Below are positions 34,888 through 40,519 of a stretch of 64,000 bases of DNA, in pieces; within the stretch, counting starts at the first letter, position 1, and each line of letters opens with the position of its first letter. The stretch covers positions 32,001 through 96,000 of IMG/VR virus record IMGVR_UViG_3300005573_000060; one strand, written 5' to 3'. The stretch comes from a virus. The position numbers and the translations under genes are program-made. Under the pieces are notes generated by a model. It did no database searches, was not told the origin of the DNA, and saw only the letters and a program-made list of their open reading frames with translations.

Positions 34888-35047
34888 AATAGATATTGTT
34901 TAAAAATTATATAAATATAAAACTTTTTTGTAATAAAAAAATTTTTAACAAAATTTTAACATCATATTTATTTAGAAGATATATCTTTCTTTTATGATAT
35001 ATTGATTTAGATTTTAAATAATGTCAATTAGTAAGTAATTTATTAGT

Positions 35048-35293
35048 TTACACACTATAATATTCTTTAAACCATAGCTGATACAGTTTTCTTTTTTGTT
35101 TTTCTCTTAATGCAATAACCCTAAGAGCGCCAAGTGAAACTGCATTTAACACAACATCAACTGGAATACCAGGCAACATACTATCATCAATATATTTACC
35201 AAGCCAAGGACTACCTTCTTCGGCAAATTGTTGCATCATTACGTTGTCTGGATAACATTCATAAACTTTTTTTATTAATTCTTTGCTGTACAT
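35048..35293 (-). CDS. Hypothetical protein
   Basis: 81-aa ORF. Confidence 0.5.
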   Translation of the reverse strand: MYSKELIKKVYECYPDNVMMQQFAEEGSPWLGKYIDDSMLPGIPVDVVLNAVSLGALRVIALREKQKRKLYQLWFKEYYSV

Positions 35294-35317
35294 TTTAAGT
35301 TTTTTAGTATCAAATTT

Positions 35318-35686
35318 TTAAATATTCTTTTGAAATTCATAAATATTTCCAAGTACTTTATATTCTTTAGTTAATTTTTCTCGTTTTGCGCCATAATCAA
35401 CATAAAATCCATTTTCATCGCACTTTACTACGCCTTCTCCATCATTATTTCCTAAAGACACAATATCTCCTTCAAAAATGTTTTCTATTCCAGACCATTG
35501 CATTATTTTTAATTGATTCTGAAAATATGGATTTTCGAATGGATGCGGTTTACTGGTAAGGAGTTGCTTATCAGAAGTAAACACAATCCAATCATTACTT
35601 TCTTCACCTGAGCGTATAAACTGAAAGTTGTTATGCATAACACAATTTCCTTCATCCCACGCTCTAAATTTAATTGTTCTTTCCAT
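35318..35686 (-). CDS. YopX-family protein
   Basis: IKFRAWD, MQWSG...IFEGDIV, VLGNIYE. Confidence 0.85.
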   Translation of the reverse strand: MERTIKFRAWDEGNCVMHNNFQFIRSGEESNDWIVFTSDKQLLTSKPHPFENPYFQNQLKIMQWSGIENIFEGDIVSLGNNDGEGVVKCDENGFYVDYGAKREKLTKEYKVLGNIYEFQKNI

Positions 35687-35711
35687 AAATTTAAATTTTT
35701 AAATTTGACAT

Positions 35712-37376
35712 TTAAATATTGATTTTCTTAATTTCTTCAATTACTTTAACAGGATCTATTTCAACTGTAGAAGCCTTAACATAAATATCTTGATTATAAC
35801 CATATATGCGAAATGTCTTACTATTTTCTCTTATATTAGTAGTTGTACCATAACCACAAATATTGATAATATAGAGATATGGTGTACCATATTTTTCACA
35901 ATATGATTTGTATGAAAAAAGAGCATTATCTTTAGATTGTTCGTCAGAAATAATTATAATTCTTTCGTATCCACCATTATTCATGAGAACTGGAAATATT
36001 GAGTTCCAAGAAGTCATACCTCCTGCTTCAACTAAAGAAATGCTCTTCTTAATAGTATTTATACTATCTGTAGGATTATATTGACATAATTTACAAGAAG
36101 AGGCAAATGTGTAAATGTCTGCGTTAAGTCCTTTACCAAATGTTGCTGCAATTAATCTAGCTTTATTTAAAGCAGAAGAAACTCCTCTTCTCTTATCATT
36201 TAATGTAATATTCGTACTCATACTTCCAGAAGAATCGAACACAACAGCCGTCTTACGTTTTGGCATAAGTACTTGCAGATTAGGAATAGAACGTTCATAT
36301 GCAGTATTTAAAGCAGATATGACTTTACCTATGCTAGAAGTTTTAAACTCTAATTGAAGTACTTCATTTGCTAAATCTATTTGAATTGGCCACACTAAAG
36401 ATTTTCTGATAAACTCTTCATTTACTAATAAATTACATGCTTCATCAATTAATTCTTCATCTTGTGTGATAATTATATTACGAAGATTACGAAGCAATGC
36501 AAGATAACCGATTTTTTTATCTCTGATTAGTTCCTTATAATTTTGTGTTTTAAGATCTTTAAGTTCATTTTTAGCCTCATCTTCTGAAATTTGTCTAGAT
36601 TTTATTTTTTCTGCAACAGTTTTTCCAGCATTAGAATTCTTATCTTCAACTGTATTAAATTGTTTTAACGTTCCAAGAACAAGAGCTGTAAGAGTAGGAA
36701 CATTTATTTCTTTTTCGTTGTAATGTTTAAGATCATACACTTCTTCGTATTTTGTTCCCTTTGCAGCTTTTGAAAGAGCTTCAACCGATAAACTTACAAC
36801 TCCATTTATTACAGTTGGATGAGGATGTACTAAATTAACAATATCAACGAGGGATACAGAATGATTTTTTAACTGATATTTTGCAAGAGTATATGCGTCG
36901 GAGTTTTCTATAACACTTTTGAATCCTCTCTTTATAGAGTTTGGAATTGCAGCATCTTTACCGTTTTTCTTTTGATATAATGCAAGAATTTCATTCATAT
37001 CGTCAAGACGATATATGATGCCTCCTTTATTTTTTCCGTGTTCTCTTTTTGAAAAGAATCTTTTAGCTAATTCAGTTCCACTTAAAAAAGGCAATAATTC
37101 AACGGCGCCAAAATGAGTAACAGATCTTTGTCCAAAAACTGTTCTAGCATAAATAAGTGCTTTAGCTACAAATTCTGGATTCTTTTGAGCTATTTCTTGA
37201 ATAAGCTGTTTAAAGCGAATTTCTCTTTCAGACTCATTTTCATAAAAGGTGTCATTTAGACCAGATGCTAAAATAGATATTAATTCAATCTCAGCAGTTT
37301 GTTTTAATCCATCACCATTTTCAAAAGTTTGAGAGTGACTAACCTGTTTTTGCTTTTTTGTATTATACTTTGCCAT
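35712..37376 (-). CDS. Ro60/Rsr-like TROVE + vWA RNA-binding protein
   Basis: Y.RTVFGQRS, RLDDM.EI, LAKYQ, VDIVNLVHP, IGYLALLRNLRNI (TROVE); VFDSSGSM, ISDEQ (vWA MIDAS). Confidence 0.9.
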   Translation of the reverse strand: MAKYNTKKQKQVSHSQTFENGDGLKQTAEIELISILASGLNDTFYENESEREIRFKQLIQEIAQKNPEFVAKALIYARTVFGQRSVTHFGAVELLPFLSGTELAKRFFSKREHGKNKGGIIYRLDDMNEILALYQKKNGKDAAIPNSIKRGFKSVIENSDAYTLAKYQLKNHSVSLVDIVNLVHPHPTVINGVVSLSVEALSKAAKGTKYEEVYDLKHYNEKEINVPTLTALVLGTLKQFNTVEDKNSNAGKTVAEKIKSRQISEDEAKNELKDLKTQNYKELIRDKKIGYLALLRNLRNIIITQDEELIDEACNLLVNEEFIRKSLVWPIQIDLANEVLQLEFKTSSIGKVISALNTAYERSIPNLQVLMPKRKTAVVFDSSGSMSTNITLNDKRRGVSSALNKARLIAATFGKGLNADIYTFASSCKLCQYNPTDSINTIKKSISLVEAGGMTSWNSIFPVLMNNGGYERIIIISDEQSKDNALFSYKSYCEKYGTPYLYIINICGYGTTTNIRENSKTFRIYGYNQDIYVKASTVEIDPVKVIEEIKKINI

Positions 37377-37407
37377 ATCTATTTAAAAATTAAGTTATTA
37401 TTAAAAC

Positions 37408-37449
37408 AAAAAGTGCTCTGGAAGTGGTAACATTCCCGGAGCACTTTTT
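37408..37449 (-). terminator. Intrinsic terminator in the ro60 leader
   Basis: aaaaagtgctc / gagcacttttt 11-bp inverted repeat; on minus followed by UUUUUGUUUU; about 30 nt before the ro60 ATG. Confidence 0.8.
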
Positions 37450-37484
37450 GACTCTACAACATCTTTATAGATATTATAAATTAT

Positions 37485-37590
37485 AAAAGAGCTGGGAATT
37501 AGTGAAGAAGGATACTTTGACAAATAAAGTAACTATTTAACAAATAAAGTATTTATTCATACCGATGAAATCCTTCTTCTTACCACAACC
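37485..37590 (-). ncRNA. Candidate Y-RNA-like structured RNA upstream of ro60
   Basis: Perfect 10-bp stem gaagaaggat (37504-37513) / atccttcttc (37570-37579); end motifs shared with the 40151-40236 element; Ro60 adjacency. Confidence 0.55.
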
Positions 37591-37654
37591 TTTATAATAT
37601 ATATAAAGAATATATTATATAGTTTTGTAACTTAATGTTAAAATTTTGTTAAAA

Positions 37655-38017
37655 TTATGGTTTCTTAATTGGAATTTTTCTTACTTTTATTTCAAAATAA
37701 GTAGAATCTTTGTCTTTAACATATACAGCATTATGAATAATATCATATATTGCTGTATCAGTTTTAAGAATATAAATTCTTTGTGAAACACTTCCACTAT
37801 ATCTGCTTACGTAAAATGATAGCCAATCTGTTAAAGGTGGAATATCTTTTATCTCCATCTCTTGCATGATATTCTTTAAAATTATATATGAATCTCTTTC
37901 TTTATTCGTTGGAAAAGACATTTGTAAAATATAATTGTCTCTATATTGATCATCAAAATGCTCACAATTATTGGAAGATAAAAGCAATAAAACAATAATG
38001 AGAAACAATCTTTTCAT
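37655..38017 (-). CDS. Hypothetical exported/lipoprotein-like protein
   Basis: MKRLFLIIVLLLLSSNNC signal. Confidence 0.55.
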   Translation of the reverse strand: MKRLFLIIVLLLLSSNNCEHFDDQYRDNYILQMSFPTNKERDSYIILKNIMQEMEIKDIPPLTDWLSFYVSRYSGSVSQRIYILKTDTAIYDIIHNAVYVKDKDSTYFEIKVRKIPIKKP

Positions 38018-38086
38018 ATTTTTATTTATATATTTTTTAAAAACTTAAATATATTCAATATATATAAAATATAAAAAGTTTATTTT

Positions 38087-38650
38087 ATGGGAAATGTCAT
38101 TTATTCTCAAGATGTAATGGAACCTACAGCTCCTACAGCTTTCATTACAAAATGCAAAAACAGACTAAAATATTATGGTAAAAATGTTTATTTGCATGAT
38201 AATGATGAATTTGAAATAGAACTTTACAACCCTTTATCTATTGAAATTCTAGCAAAAGTTAAGATTAGTGACATCCCCGCGGAAAAGGTGGTAGTTTTAC
38301 AGCCAGAAGAAATAGTTTATCTTAATAATTATGTGTTTAAAATAGATGATGCATATGAAAATGATCCAGTTTCCAAGAGATCTCATACGCATAAAGGAAA
38401 CATTAAAATAGAATTTTATGAAAAAGAAAAACAAGTATCTTATTTTGATTCTTATATAATATATAGAACTAATAAAAAATTCAGTGTTTCTAGTACATCT
38501 GCAGCAGATTCAAATGCATATATTTATTATACAAATCCGGTTTCTTCTATAGACAGTTCTAGTGTAGCTTCAAACAAAGAATCTAATTCTCTAAAATTTA
38601 ATAAGTATTATTCGTGGAAAATTTCCTGGAAAATTCTTCCTCTTTCATAA
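38087..38650 (+). CDS. Hypothetical protein
   Basis: 187-aa ORF with AT-rich promoter and downstream terminator. Confidence 0.6.
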   Translation: MGNVIYSQDVMEPTAPTAFITKCKNRLKYYGKNVYLHDNDEFEIELYNPLSIEILAKVKISDIPAEKVVVLQPEEIVYLNNYVFKIDDAYENDPVSKRSHTHKGNIKIEFYEKEKQVSYFDSYIIYRTNKKFSVSSTSAADSNAYIYYTNPVSSIDSSSVASNKESNSLKFNKYYSWKISWKILPLS

Positions 38651-38658
38651 AAAACTTC

Positions 38659-38688
38659 AAAAAAAGAGAGCTTAAGCTCTCTTTTTTT
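38659..38688. terminator. Bidirectional terminator
   Basis: aaaaaagagagc-ttaa-gctctcttttttt between convergent genes. Confidence 0.85.
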
Positions 38689-39001
38689 ATATTATCTTAT
38701 TAATTTTTTCTTGTAAAATTTTCTTAGGATAAACTCCAACTGTTTTATCTACTATTTTGCCATTTTTTATATAAAGTATTGTGGGTATGTTTTTAATTCC
38801 AAATTTTACAGCACTTTGCGGGCTCTCATCAACATTACATGTTATAACCTCAACTTTTTCTTTTAATTCAGATGATATTTCTTCTAAAACAGGAGAAACC
38901 ATTTTACATGGAATACACCAAGGAGCCCAAAAATCTATTACAACAGGCTTCTTTGATTCTAACACAATTTCATTAAAATTTTTGTCATTAACTTCTATCA
39001 T
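38687..39001 (-). CDS. trxA: Thioredoxin
   Basis: VVIDFWAPWCIPCKM, FGIKNIPT. Confidence 0.93.
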   Translation of the reverse strand: MIEVNDKNFNEIVLESKKPVVIDFWAPWCIPCKMVSPVLEEISSELKEKVEVITCNVDESPQSAVKFGIKNIPTILYIKNGKIVDKTVGVYPKKILQEKINKII

Positions 39002-39011
39002 AGCTATACAA

Positions 39012-39209
39012 TTATTTTAAGTTGTTGATTAACTCTCTTGCAGCTATTTCTGCAGATTCTAGAGAATCATGATAATAAGAATTTGCACCAACTACTTTCT
39101 TTTCATCTAGAGTTTTTACAACGAAACGGTAATCATTATATATCGGGTCTTCTGTGATTATTACTAAATATCCCGCATAGGTGAAAGAATACTGATTCAT
39201 AGAACACAT
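39012..39209 (-). CDS. Hypothetical protein
   Basis: 65-aa ORF. Confidence 0.45.
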   Translation of the reverse strand: MCSMNQYSFTYAGYLVIITEDPIYNDYRFVVKTLDEKKVVGANSYYHDSLESAEIAARELINNLK

Positions 39210-39440
39210 AAAATATTTAAGATTACATTCAAATTTTGTAAATATGAAGAATCTTTGTTGGAGTTTTTTTCTGTATTTTATTATATATTTACGAGCGCAA
39301 AAAGATTTTAAACTCTTTAAAAAAATATAAGAAGAATGATTGTTATCACAATCAAAATAATTCCGAAAAATACAGTTTTATACTCGAAAAAATGATCTCT
39401 ATTATAATACTCTTTTTTATTCATGGTAAAATACTATTTG

Positions 39441-39526
39441 TGGCTCCGAGGGGATTTGAACCCCCAAGTTCCTTACGGAACGCTTGATTTTAAGTCAAGT
39501 GCGTTTACCAATTTCGCCACAGAGCC
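39441..39526 (-). tRNA. tRNA-Leu(UAA)
   Basis: CTTGA-CTTAAAA-TCAAG; variable arm GTTCC-GTAA-GGAAC. Confidence 0.92.
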
Positions 39527-39549
39527 ATTTTACAATTTAAAATCATAAG

Positions 39550-39633
39550 TGGGGAAGGAGGGACTCGAACCCCCGAAGTCCTTTCGGACGAGTGATTTAC
39601 AGTCACTTGCAATTGCCACTATGCGACACCCCC
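39550..39633 (-). tRNA. tRNA-Tyr(GUA)
   Basis: AGTGA-CTGTAAA-TCACT; variable arm GTCC-GAAA-GGAC. Confidence 0.92.
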
Positions 39634-39647
39634 ATTCCAAAGAACTT

Positions 39648-39839
39648 TTATGCTAATTTTACATTGATAGCATTCATACCTTTACGTCCTTCTTTAAGAT
39701 CAAAAAACACAATATCATCTTTTTCTATTTTATCAATACATTCAGATACATGTACAAAATACTCATTAGATGATTCCCTGTCTTTAATAAAACCAAAACC
39801 TTTTGTTTCATTAAAAAATTTAACGATTCCTTCTTTCAT
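39648..39839 (-). CDS. Cold-shock domain protein
   Basis: GIVKFFNETKGFGFI, YFVHVS, GRKGMNAINV. Confidence 0.92.
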   Translation of the reverse strand: MKEGIVKFFNETKGFGFIKDRESSNEYFVHVSECIDKIEKDDIVFFDLKEGRKGMNAINVKLA

Positions 39840-39885
39840 TATAAAAATTTATTTTAATTATCTCTAATACTATTGTTAGAGATCG

Positions 39886-39961
39886 TCGAGTAGGTGCGAT
39901 TCGAACGCACGAGTTCTCCACATCCCAAATGTGGCGGGGTAGCCAACTCCCCAACTACTCG
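39886..39961 (-). tRNA. tRNA-Pro(UGG)
   Basis: CCACA-TTTGGGA-TGTGG; C1-G72, A73. Confidence 0.9.
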
Positions 39962-39968
39962 TTATTTG

Positions 39969-40042
39969 TAGTTCTGGTGGGATTCGAACCCACACTTTAT
40001 AGCTCCTAAAGCTATCGCCTCTGCCAATTGGGCCACAGAACT
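39969..40042 (-). tRNA. tRNA-Leu(UAG) with short variable loop
   Basis: ATAGC-TTTAGGA-GCTAT; Leu-type D loop; only AAAGT before the T arm; A73. Confidence 0.85.
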
Positions 40043-40078
40043 GTCATATAACTCTTCATGAGTTGATAAGTTATTGAG

Positions 40079-40150
40079 TAGCTCCTTCAGGATTCGAACC
40101 TAAAATTTATCCTCCAAAGGGATACGTGTTAGCCATTACACCAAGGAGCT
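40079..40150 (-). tRNA. tRNA-Gln(UUG)
   Basis: TATCC-CTTTGGA-GGATA. Confidence 0.88.
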
Positions 40151-40236
40151 GTAGAGTGAGAAAAACGAGAAGAGAATTTAACAACAATTAATCAGTTTTG
40201 CCGACTGTCGATGTATCTCTTTCTCTTACTACACTC
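40151..40236 (-). ncRNA. Second candidate Y-RNA-like element, abutting the 5-prime end of tRNA-Gln
   Basis: GUAGUAAG-AGAAAGAG-AUACAUCG...CUCUUCUC-GUUUUUCUC vs GUGGUAAG-AAGAAGGA-UUUCAUCG...UCCUUCUUC-ACUAAUUCCC in the ro60 leader; stem gagaagaga/tctctttctc. Confidence 0.5.
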
Positions 40237-40362
40237 AAACCATCAAAGTTTTTTCAAAGAACCTGTATTTTATTTTTATATTGCAAATATATAAAAATTT
40301 TTTATACTAGAAAAATTTTTAACAAATTTTAACAATTTTTTAATATCTACTTATTTTTAAAT

Positions 40363-40390
40363 AAAAACCCCTCTTTGGGGAGGGGTTTGT
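40363..40390 (-). terminator. Intrinsic terminator
   Basis: aaaaacccctc / gaggggtttgt hairpin with U-run on minus. Confidence 0.7.
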
Positions 40391-40401
40391 CAAATATATA
40401 A

Positions 40402-40519
40402 AATGATACTATGCTACGATAGTTTTTGTCCCTCCCATACTATAGGCAAATACAATAATGGTAAGTAACCTCTTTGGGGGAGTTGGCATAAAACTTCATA
40501 TATATAGCATAGTATCATT
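40402..40519. ncRNA. Unassigned ~118-nt intergenic long-hairpin element
   Basis: Perfect 15-bp inverted repeat 40402-40416/40505-40519 continued by agtttttgtc/ggcataaaact and ctccc/gggag. Confidence 0.4.

Follow-up and report, generated by a model that had tools for sequence, protein, structure and literature searches.

How are the amounts of Ro60 and of its Y RNA partners kept in balance? The leader of the ro60 gene of a huge phage bears on this gap in current knowledge. The gene lies on the minus strand of a 64,000-nucleotide (nt) stretch of DNA, called the window below, that comprises bases 32001-96000 of the 129.7-kb IMG/VR virus record IMGVR_UViG_3300005573_000060 (CheckV completeness estimate, 32%). 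Upstream of ro60 we find a member of a family of Y-like RNAs, followed by a terminator whose 5' arm can pair with the 3' tail of the RNA; the two alternative helices both covary among relatives, and the next open reading frame (ORF) begins a short distance past the terminator. Judged by the sequences, this is a conserved terminator/antiterminator design, and we consider it real. An earlier reading of the same DNA (the original prediction) had proposed such a leader, with Ro60 controlling its own synthesis. The parts to which the argument refers are the following (bulged bases in square brackets):

37485-37591, minus: Y-like RNA element, 107 nt, its 3' end 109 nt before the ro60 ATG
37580-37590, minus: 5' strand of terminal helix P1 (RNAalifold consensus), GG-UUG[U]GG[U]AA, bulged U at 37585 and 37582; switch region 1 and candidate Ro60-contact strand
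37570-37579, minus: 5' strand of helix P2, GAAGAAGGAU, half of a perfect 10-bp stem; P2 covaries across the family
37514-37569, minus: apical region, with the family-conserved CAUCG at 37567-37563 and a window-specific duplication
37504-37513, minus: 3' strand of P2, AUCCUUCUUC, which pairs with 37579-37570
37485-37503, minus: internal loop ACUAA (37503-37499) and tail AUUCCCAGCUCUUUU; the tail is switch region 2
37453-37480, minus: spacer hairpin (RNAfold), variable in sequence among relatives, the hairpin being present in most
37403-37449, minus: intrinsic terminator, with 5' arm AAAAAGUGCUC-C-GGGAAU (region 3), 3' arm (region 4) and U-tract at 37412-37403
35712-37376, minus: ro60, 554 amino acids (aa), ATG at 37376; Pfam TROVE, E 4.7e-12; PHROG 850, RNA-binding protein

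The element of about 100 nt with its perfect 10-bp stem (37579-37570 with 37513-37504), and the hairpin and U-tract (37449-37403) that precede the ro60 ATG, lie where the original prediction had placed them. The terminator hairpin (37449-37408) reads AAAAAGUGCUC-CGGGAAU...UUCC-A-GAGCACUUUUU, then GUUUU; as is typical of intrinsic terminators, it is a GC-containing hairpin (-21.3 kcal/mol) followed by UUUUUGUUUU. Its loop holds UUACCAC (37430-37424). The tail has two possible partners, the 5' strand of P1 (through 37498-37490) and the 5' arm of the terminator (through 37499-37485). The 278-nt intergenic RNA as a whole folds with z = -6.4, and no shuffled sequence folds equally well.

A Y-like RNA family beside ro60

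To place the leader among relatives we started from the protein. The family profile of ORF 35712-37376 matches two TROVE proteins and Ro60 as solved in structures 1YVP and 9NEN. Its nearest deposited phage homologue shares just 33% identity, and neither leader nor locus has a DNA match among 50,697 phage records. Metagenomic relatives number more than 1000, the closest at 52-66% identity. Since viral contigs searched with the single Ro60 protein gave no match, a 40-sequence Ro60 profile was needed; the relatives were found with it, and 160 loci encoding them were fetched.

RNAalifold, run on a plain MAFFT alignment of 18 homologous elements upstream of ro60, returned a terminal helix P1 in which 5' UUG[U]GG[U]AA pairs with UU-CC-CAA and two U are bulged, then a 3-nt internal loop on the 3' side, and then helix P2 with abundant compensatory change. 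The motif UAC(U/A)UCG is invariant, or nearly so, in the MAFFT alignment of family members. A covariance model built from the 18-element alignment has ~190 matches in the 160 ro60 loci, and 110 once redundancy is removed (87 sources). With few exceptions the copies are on the ro60 strand, often 2-4 in tandem; those of the clade nearest the window are upstream of ro60 on the same strand, and some of those in more distant clades are downstream.

Across 108 distinct family sequences, 93.5% of cells are paired, compared with 75.6% in shuffled sequences and 39-59% with partners slid, and both partners have changed in 14 of the 16 pairs. In P1 (family-wide consensus 5' UUG[U]RG[U]AA with UUCYCAA) 97% of cells are paired, and the pair at columns 8/188 is A-U 77 times, G-C 31 times and never unpaired. 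The 108-sequence alignment was fitted to the covariance model and so is biased toward structure; because the independent RNAalifold result and a second copy in the window agree with it, we accept the structure all the same. Covariation across TROVE leaders, a check that had been proposed with the original prediction, is thus strong in both P1 and P2. The family consists of two lineages, GG-type (5' G[U]GG, tail UUUCCC) and AG-type (5' G[U]AG, tail UUUCUC), and the copy under study (copy 1) belongs to the GG lineage. It scores 29 bits (E ~0.004) with the covariance model, a low value that we attribute to a 20-nt-period duplication of UACUUUAUUUGU in its apical part. This sequence stands at 37551-37540 and again at 37531-37520 (minus strand), and the internal duplication appears recent.

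Searched at the Rfam gathering score, the whole window contains no Y_RNA or YrlA match. At E <= 10, stretches 35000-40500 and 37390-37620 likewise gave no Y_RNA or YrlA, and just chance microRNA-like matches to the terminator hairpin; the proposed Infernal check with the Rfam Y RNA and Yrl models therefore yielded nothing in the window. From its form and position we read the element as belonging to a Y-RNA-like family that Rfam does not recognise here. Two hallmarks of Y RNAs are present, namely proximity to ro60 (109 nt to the ATG, and ~110 homologous copies beside ro60) and a length of 80-130 nt with a bulged end stem and an internal loop (copies of 107 nt and 89 nt). That the element is Y-RNA-like and linked to ro60, as originally claimed, is borne out by the large family beside ro60, by its covarying terminal stem and by YrlA- or tRNA-like inserts on the same base in relatives.

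Alternative pairing of the tail and predicted folding

The switch was analysed in 60 distinct loci in which a terminator hairpin was called after the last copy. In most of them the last copy is followed, within ~50 nt, by the variable spacer hairpin and next by the terminator. After GG-type copies the top of the terminator 5' arm is GGGAA (16/18), and after AG-type copies it is GAGAA, GAGAG or GAGGA (~38/44); the match between lineages is never crossed, UUCCC tails going with GGGAA and UUCUC tails with GAGAA. As a marker of these terminators the loose motif GRGRR proved too permissive, being found in 33% of unrelated terminators, and therefore the exact complement of each locus's own tail was used. 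By this measure 37 of the 60 terminator 5' halves contain the 5-mer complementary to their own tail (1-2.5% expected by chance) and none contains that of the other lineage.

A MAFFT alignment of 51 units, made from sequence alone, was then used to score tail:arm pairing. At the six tail:arm positions 94.8% of cells are paired, vs 33-69% when slid, and the key position has U-A in 34 units, C-G in 16 and no pair in one. The terminator stem, which shares the same three arm columns, is paired in 94.6% of cells, with 6 of its 7 pairs changing on both sides. P1, tail:arm and terminator helices thus share bases and each has more than 94% of cells paired, as in an attenuator. The pairing that had been predicted between the tail AUUCCC-AGC-U-CUUUU (37499-37485) and the terminator 5' arm (37448-37432) is present in the window and conserved in relatives, and so is the terminator stem with which it is mutually exclusive and which covaries as well.

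Within the AG lineage the helix extends further, as GGUUUCUC:GAGAAACC and GGUUUUCUC:GAGAAAACC. Tails AGGUUUCUC accompany arms GAGAAACC, and tail GGUUUUCUC accompanies arm GAGAAAACC, U-run and A-run lengthening together. A G at tail offset 6 goes with a C in the arm in 20/21 loci (Fisher p = 1.5e-8, uncorrected for relatedness). The contiguous helix of this lineage averages 6.97 bp in native combinations vs 6.21 +/- 0.12 bp when permuted within the lineage, and 0 of 2000 permutations reach the native value. The window itself has tail AAUUCCC (not AUUUCCC) and arm GGGAAU, so that the sixth tail:arm pair has changed from U-A to A-U on both sides. At least six changes of tail state are counted on the Ro60 protein tree, each accompanied by the matching change of the terminator.

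A further pairing had been proposed between GUGGUAA at the 5' end of the RNA (37586-37580) and UUACCAC in the terminator loop. The exact 7-nt complementarity is there in the window (shuffle P ~0.01) and is absent in 58 of 60 related loci. We rejected it as a family feature, just the window (7 nt) and locus L114 (6 nt) exceeding chance among the 60.

Folding in stages, averaged over 57 loci, gives a predicted order of events in which P1 comes first, tail:arm next and the terminator last. When transcription has just passed the tail, the probability of P1 is 0.56, and it exceeds 0.5 in 74% of loci; when it has just passed the 5' arm, tail:arm reaches 0.88-0.89, vs 0.16 with a shuffled arm, and P1 is near 0. 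For window positions 37591-37395 the minimum-energy fold (RNAfold, -57.6 kcal/mol) is the alternative structure of the original prediction, and a slightly different stretch favours the terminator form by 0.6 kcal/mol. The two folds are nearly isoenergetic, and the window RNA is therefore bistable in silico.

Read-through, Ro60 and rival explanations

The most economical reading of these pairings is an attenuator in which P1 acts as anti-antiterminator. The stretch would make up most of a small transcription unit, in which a promoter is followed by the 107-nt Y-RNA-like noncoding RNA (ncRNA), the spacer hairpin and the intrinsic terminator, with ro60 ~30 nt further on. P1 would close first during transcription. 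Once the 5' arm emerged, the tail would switch from P1 to the arm, which it should prefer because the tail:arm helix is perfect and extends the spacer hairpin. The tail:arm helix would delay or weaken the terminator and polymerase would read into ro60, while with P1 held shut the terminator would be unhindered and a discrete Y-like RNA would be released. Ro60 binds known Y RNAs at their terminal bulged helix, and this makes it the obvious candidate for holding P1 shut; as the most likely clamp it would create a negative feedback that couples the output of Y-like RNA to that of Ro60. We infer that the switch alters read-through and, more weakly and by analogy with known Y RNAs, that Ro60 is the effector; autoregulation by Ro60 is, on the same analogy, plausible but unproven. 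A Y-like RNA with a tail switch that controls read-through into ro60, Ro60 being the likely clamp, is the best explanation of the whole, and we give it about an even chance of being right. That Ro60 autoregulates transcription specifically by clamping the bulged terminal helix of the nascent Y-like RNA, with that helix as anti-antiterminator, is a tentative proposal which we would not expect to hold in full.

The layout past the terminator bears on the need for read-through. Across the 60 loci the distance from terminator hairpin to next ORF start has a median of 26.5 nt (quartiles 20-39), and in the window 30-31 nt separate the end of the hairpin from the start of ro60. So short a gap leaves little room for a promoter, and to judge from this spacing the gene after the terminator probably needs either read-through or a longer transcript that is processed. 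That gene is ro60 in ~16 of the 60 loci, the window included. In most relatives small ORFs of two unrelated families, 64 and 76 aa long (for example L086:2251-2445 and L014:2226-2456), lie between terminator and ro60. They begin ~25 nt past the terminator, and the window lacks them at that position. The ORFs of 64-77 aa after the terminator have no Pfam or PHROG match.

Several observations weigh against a switch that controls ro60. The ORF directly after the terminator is a small one, not ro60, in ~44/60 loci. At full length, the combination of terminator and P1 beats the tail:arm fold by a mean of 6.4 kcal/mol across loci, so that the terminator dominates in most relatives; the tail moreover leaves the lower terminator stem by the U-tract uncovered, and termination might on both counts proceed regardless. 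The GG lineage, which is smaller and includes the window copy, showed no fine-scale covariation excess in the permutation test. Only four well-supported independent pairs are available for the G/A co-switch, and although all are concordant (4 to 0) the sign test gives p = 0.125; the lineage match may reflect one or a few ancient events if cassettes of RNA plus terminator swap as units. An outgroup clade (L047, L163, L165) has a terminator without complementarity to the tail. The second copy in the window has no terminator, nor do most tandem copies elsewhere. As to Ro60 binding, the invariant 5' strand of the family reads UUG[U]RG[U]AAGA and not the published GGUCCGA (animals) or GNCGAAN0-1G (bacteria). 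To these is added a structural point: a pseudoknot in the mature RNA could account for the co-variation of tail and arm without any regulation.

This last point leads to an explanation that we consider possible but doubtful, in which a stable ncRNA is followed by a constitutive terminator and the tail:arm helix is part of a mature RNA of ~190 nt, as an H-type pseudoknot or as a two-state switch that acts post-transcriptionally. The tail would then lie on the upper arm and loop and leave the lower stem intact, and a switch of this kind might govern whether Ro60 can reach the 5' strand; expression of ro60 would rely on basal read-through or on a start site elsewhere. Consistent with it, the lower GC stem beside the U-tract is left free by the tail, and the arm positions that covary with the tail (3-8) sit in the apical loop of the terminator, where their pairing need not melt the stem. 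Family copies elsewhere function in the absence of a terminator, and known bacterial Y RNAs stand alone, being processed from precursors upstream of rsr (PMC4201824). The folding tools used are nested, and pseudoknots fall outside their scoring. However, one perfectly matched purine/pyrimidine (R/Y) position lies inside the terminator stem, so that the full tail:arm helix excludes that stem, and the next ORF begins ~26 nt past the terminator with no obvious promoter, which means that termination cannot be complete.

Incomplete termination by itself might suffice if the terminator were leaky and independent of any factor, a kinetic brake that keeps Y-like RNA abundant and downstream mRNA scarce at a fixed ratio and senses neither ligand nor protein. 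The compact layout without an obvious promoter past the terminator fits such a brake, as does the transient tail:arm helix that is predicted for 89% of loci from the folding stages by themselves; the attenuator, for its part, has only a candidate effector. We nevertheless think it unlikely, since the sequence of P1, a weak helix with bulges, is conserved down to the two bulged U, as a protein-binding site would need and a pure brake would not. Common ancestry could also make arm and tail complementary: if the terminator stem were a duplicated P1 helix, the arm would complement the tail by descent and have no selected function. Indeed, without its bulges the P1 strand UUG[U]AG[U]AA is similar to the arm CCUG-AG-AA, the 3' arm resembles the tail, and tandem arrays of 2-4 copies are frequent. 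On the other hand, co-variation is seen beyond P1 in the tail and within the terminator loop in the arm, tandem copies in one locus differ in G/A state while the terminator always matches the adjacent copy, and the motif stays constant while the lower stem diverges. Duplication of P1 was thus rejected as the sole explanation of the terminator, the co-variation extending outside P1, and an origin without selected function seems to us very improbable.

The conserved alternative-pairing design of the leader makes a Ro60 feedback loop directly testable. Y RNAs beside bacterial and phage ro60 are known already, as are attenuators of the protein-dependent type. Full-text literature searches found no terminator switch, regulatory RNA switch or autoregulation tied to Ro60 or Y RNA, in keeping with the original prediction, which knew of no such switch. 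If the proposal is true, one RNA would be both partner of Ro60 and cis-acting sensor, setting the ratio of Ro60 to Y RNA in a large clade of huge phages.

Other copies, neighbouring features and known systems

Two more features belong to the locus:

37636-37652, minus: TTAACA-N5-TTAACA direct-repeat box, 5' of the RNA gene; also upstream of GG-type relatives
40149-40237, minus: second family copy (copy 2), AG-type, 89 nt; cmsearch 52.2 bits, E 1.6e-8, a better score than that of copy 1

The direct-repeat box was part of the original prediction and is found at 37652-37636 as described. It is overlapped by a sigma-70-like sequence, TTAACA (37641-37636)-N16-TATAAT (37619-37614), in which 11/12 positions match (promoter scan). 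The arrangement TTAACA-N5-TTAACA upstream of GG-type elements is seen in distant relatives too, and a reverse-oriented, shorter-spaced TTAACA box near 40315-40340 precedes copy 2.

The record as a whole contains two family copies, both of them in the window. P1 of copy 2 is GAGUG[U]AG[U]AA / UU-CU-CACUC (3' strand UUCUCACUC), compensatory throughout. Copy 2 is joined head-to-tail and without spacer to tRNA-Gln (40078-40150), the first tRNA of a five-tRNA operon, and its 3' end would arise from RNase P cleavage of that tRNA; tRNA calls gave 16 tRNA genes in the window. An ORF of 63 aa with a KGFGFI motif, cold-shock-protein-like by appearance, lies between two tRNA groups at 39648-39839 (minus strand), less than 2.5 kb from ro60. 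In related loci a transfer-messenger RNA (tmRNA) is found among the tRNAs upstream of ro60 (L058:595-993), in permuted form in L163:637-858. From this arrangement it would seem that a complete Ro60/Y RNA module is part of the tRNA operons of huge phages.

Just before the ro60 Shine-Dalgarno sequence, most relatives have a motif AAUUCUUU-hairpin-AAUAGUAAAA (L099:1905-1956), of which a weak form is present at window 37377-37400. The hairpin covaries (UUGAGC..GCUCAA vs UUAGU..ACUAA vs UUAAU..AUUAA), and a similar UUCUUU...UAG spacer separates tandem Y-like copies. For the conserved hairpin motif of the relatives, processing site, operator and promoter are all possible roles. TTCTTT...ATAG as a general promoter was discarded, as it is not enriched in the window (9 found vs 9.0 expected).

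Elsewhere in the family, arrays of up to five Y-like RNAs have a common stem module and differing apical modules (L048:507-660, L048:1139-1264, L048:1546 onward; L065:215-356), the latter being a permuted YrlA-type tRNA-like domain, a tRNA body without acceptor stem, or a plain hairpin. L048:507-660 has T-arm, acceptor-like hairpin and D-arm on the P1/P2 base in the permuted order of YrlA. Its part 530-657 matches RF02553 with 39 bits (local E 1.3e-7), the best score of any relative and still sub-threshold as the gathering score is 69, and in the alignment of this relative the CGAA in the 5' motif of Rfam YrlA is aligned with the family motif (U/A)UCG(A/U)A. Matches to tRNA positions 4-67 lie inside covariance-model hits in L048:1139-1264, L072 and L163. 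A YrlA-type tRNA-like domain with T and D arms is absent from both window copies. What is new, then, is a Y-like RNA family missing from Rfam, with ~110 non-redundant copies in minimal forms and forms with a tRNA-like domain, and in it a sharply conserved candidate helix for Ro60 binding.

How does this family compare with known Y RNAs? Metazoan Y RNA (RF00019) is likewise ~100 nt long and has a terminal helix with a bulged pyrimidine in its 5' strand near the ends, an asymmetric internal loop, an upper stem and a 3' U-run. Unlike it, the window family has no model match, has GGUAAGAG in place of GGUCCGA and two bulged U instead of one bulged C, and belongs to another transcription system. According to Chen et al. 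2014 (PMC4201824), bacterial and phage Y RNAs are located near ro60, a tRNA-like Y RNA is accompanied in each species by a simpler hairpin Y RNA, and the bacterial motif GNCGAAN0-1G is similar to animal GGUCCGA. A jumbo-phage survey mentions merely TROVE proteins with a tRNA-like partner. Like YrlA (RF02553; PMC4201824), the window family lies beside ro60, often as several copies upstream on the same strand, its ends form a long stem, and its relatives carry T-arm, acceptor-like and D-arm modules and sub-threshold YrlA matches. In contrast to YrlA, the window copies have neither the tRNA-like domain nor an Rfam match at E <= 10, the family stem exceeds that of YrlA in length and has an additional invariant bulged helix, UUG[U]RG[U]AA / UUCYCAA, that the YrlA model does not include, and GNCGAAN0-1G is unmatched; for no YrlA has coupling to a terminator switch been reported. 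YrlB and Yrn2 (PMC4201824), the second type of bacterial Y RNA, are small RNAs near ro60 that form long hairpins, lack a complete tRNA mimic and are co-encoded with a tRNA-like Y RNA, and it is to this minimal kind that the window copies correspond. Binding of YrlB and Yrn2 to Rsr was demonstrated experimentally (PMC4201824), whereas the window family, a candidate partner of Ro60, is likened to them by form. By their sequence and predicted fold, the window copies are best called minimal Y-like RNAs of a new family.

As a regulatory device the leader resembles a different group of systems. The PyrR leaders of B. subtilis and the leaders of ribosomal proteins such as L10 and L20 have four segments that pair as 1:2 and 3:4 or as 2:3, and a protein that stabilises the upstream helix favours termination and represses the gene downstream. 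The same four-segment alternative pairing is seen here, and repression of the own gene is possible in both. In the present leader, however, segments 1 and 2 are part of a conserved stand-alone RNA family that is also found without a terminator. Its antiterminator covers the upper arm only, its proposed effector is a candidate, and the product released upon termination would itself be a functional RNA.
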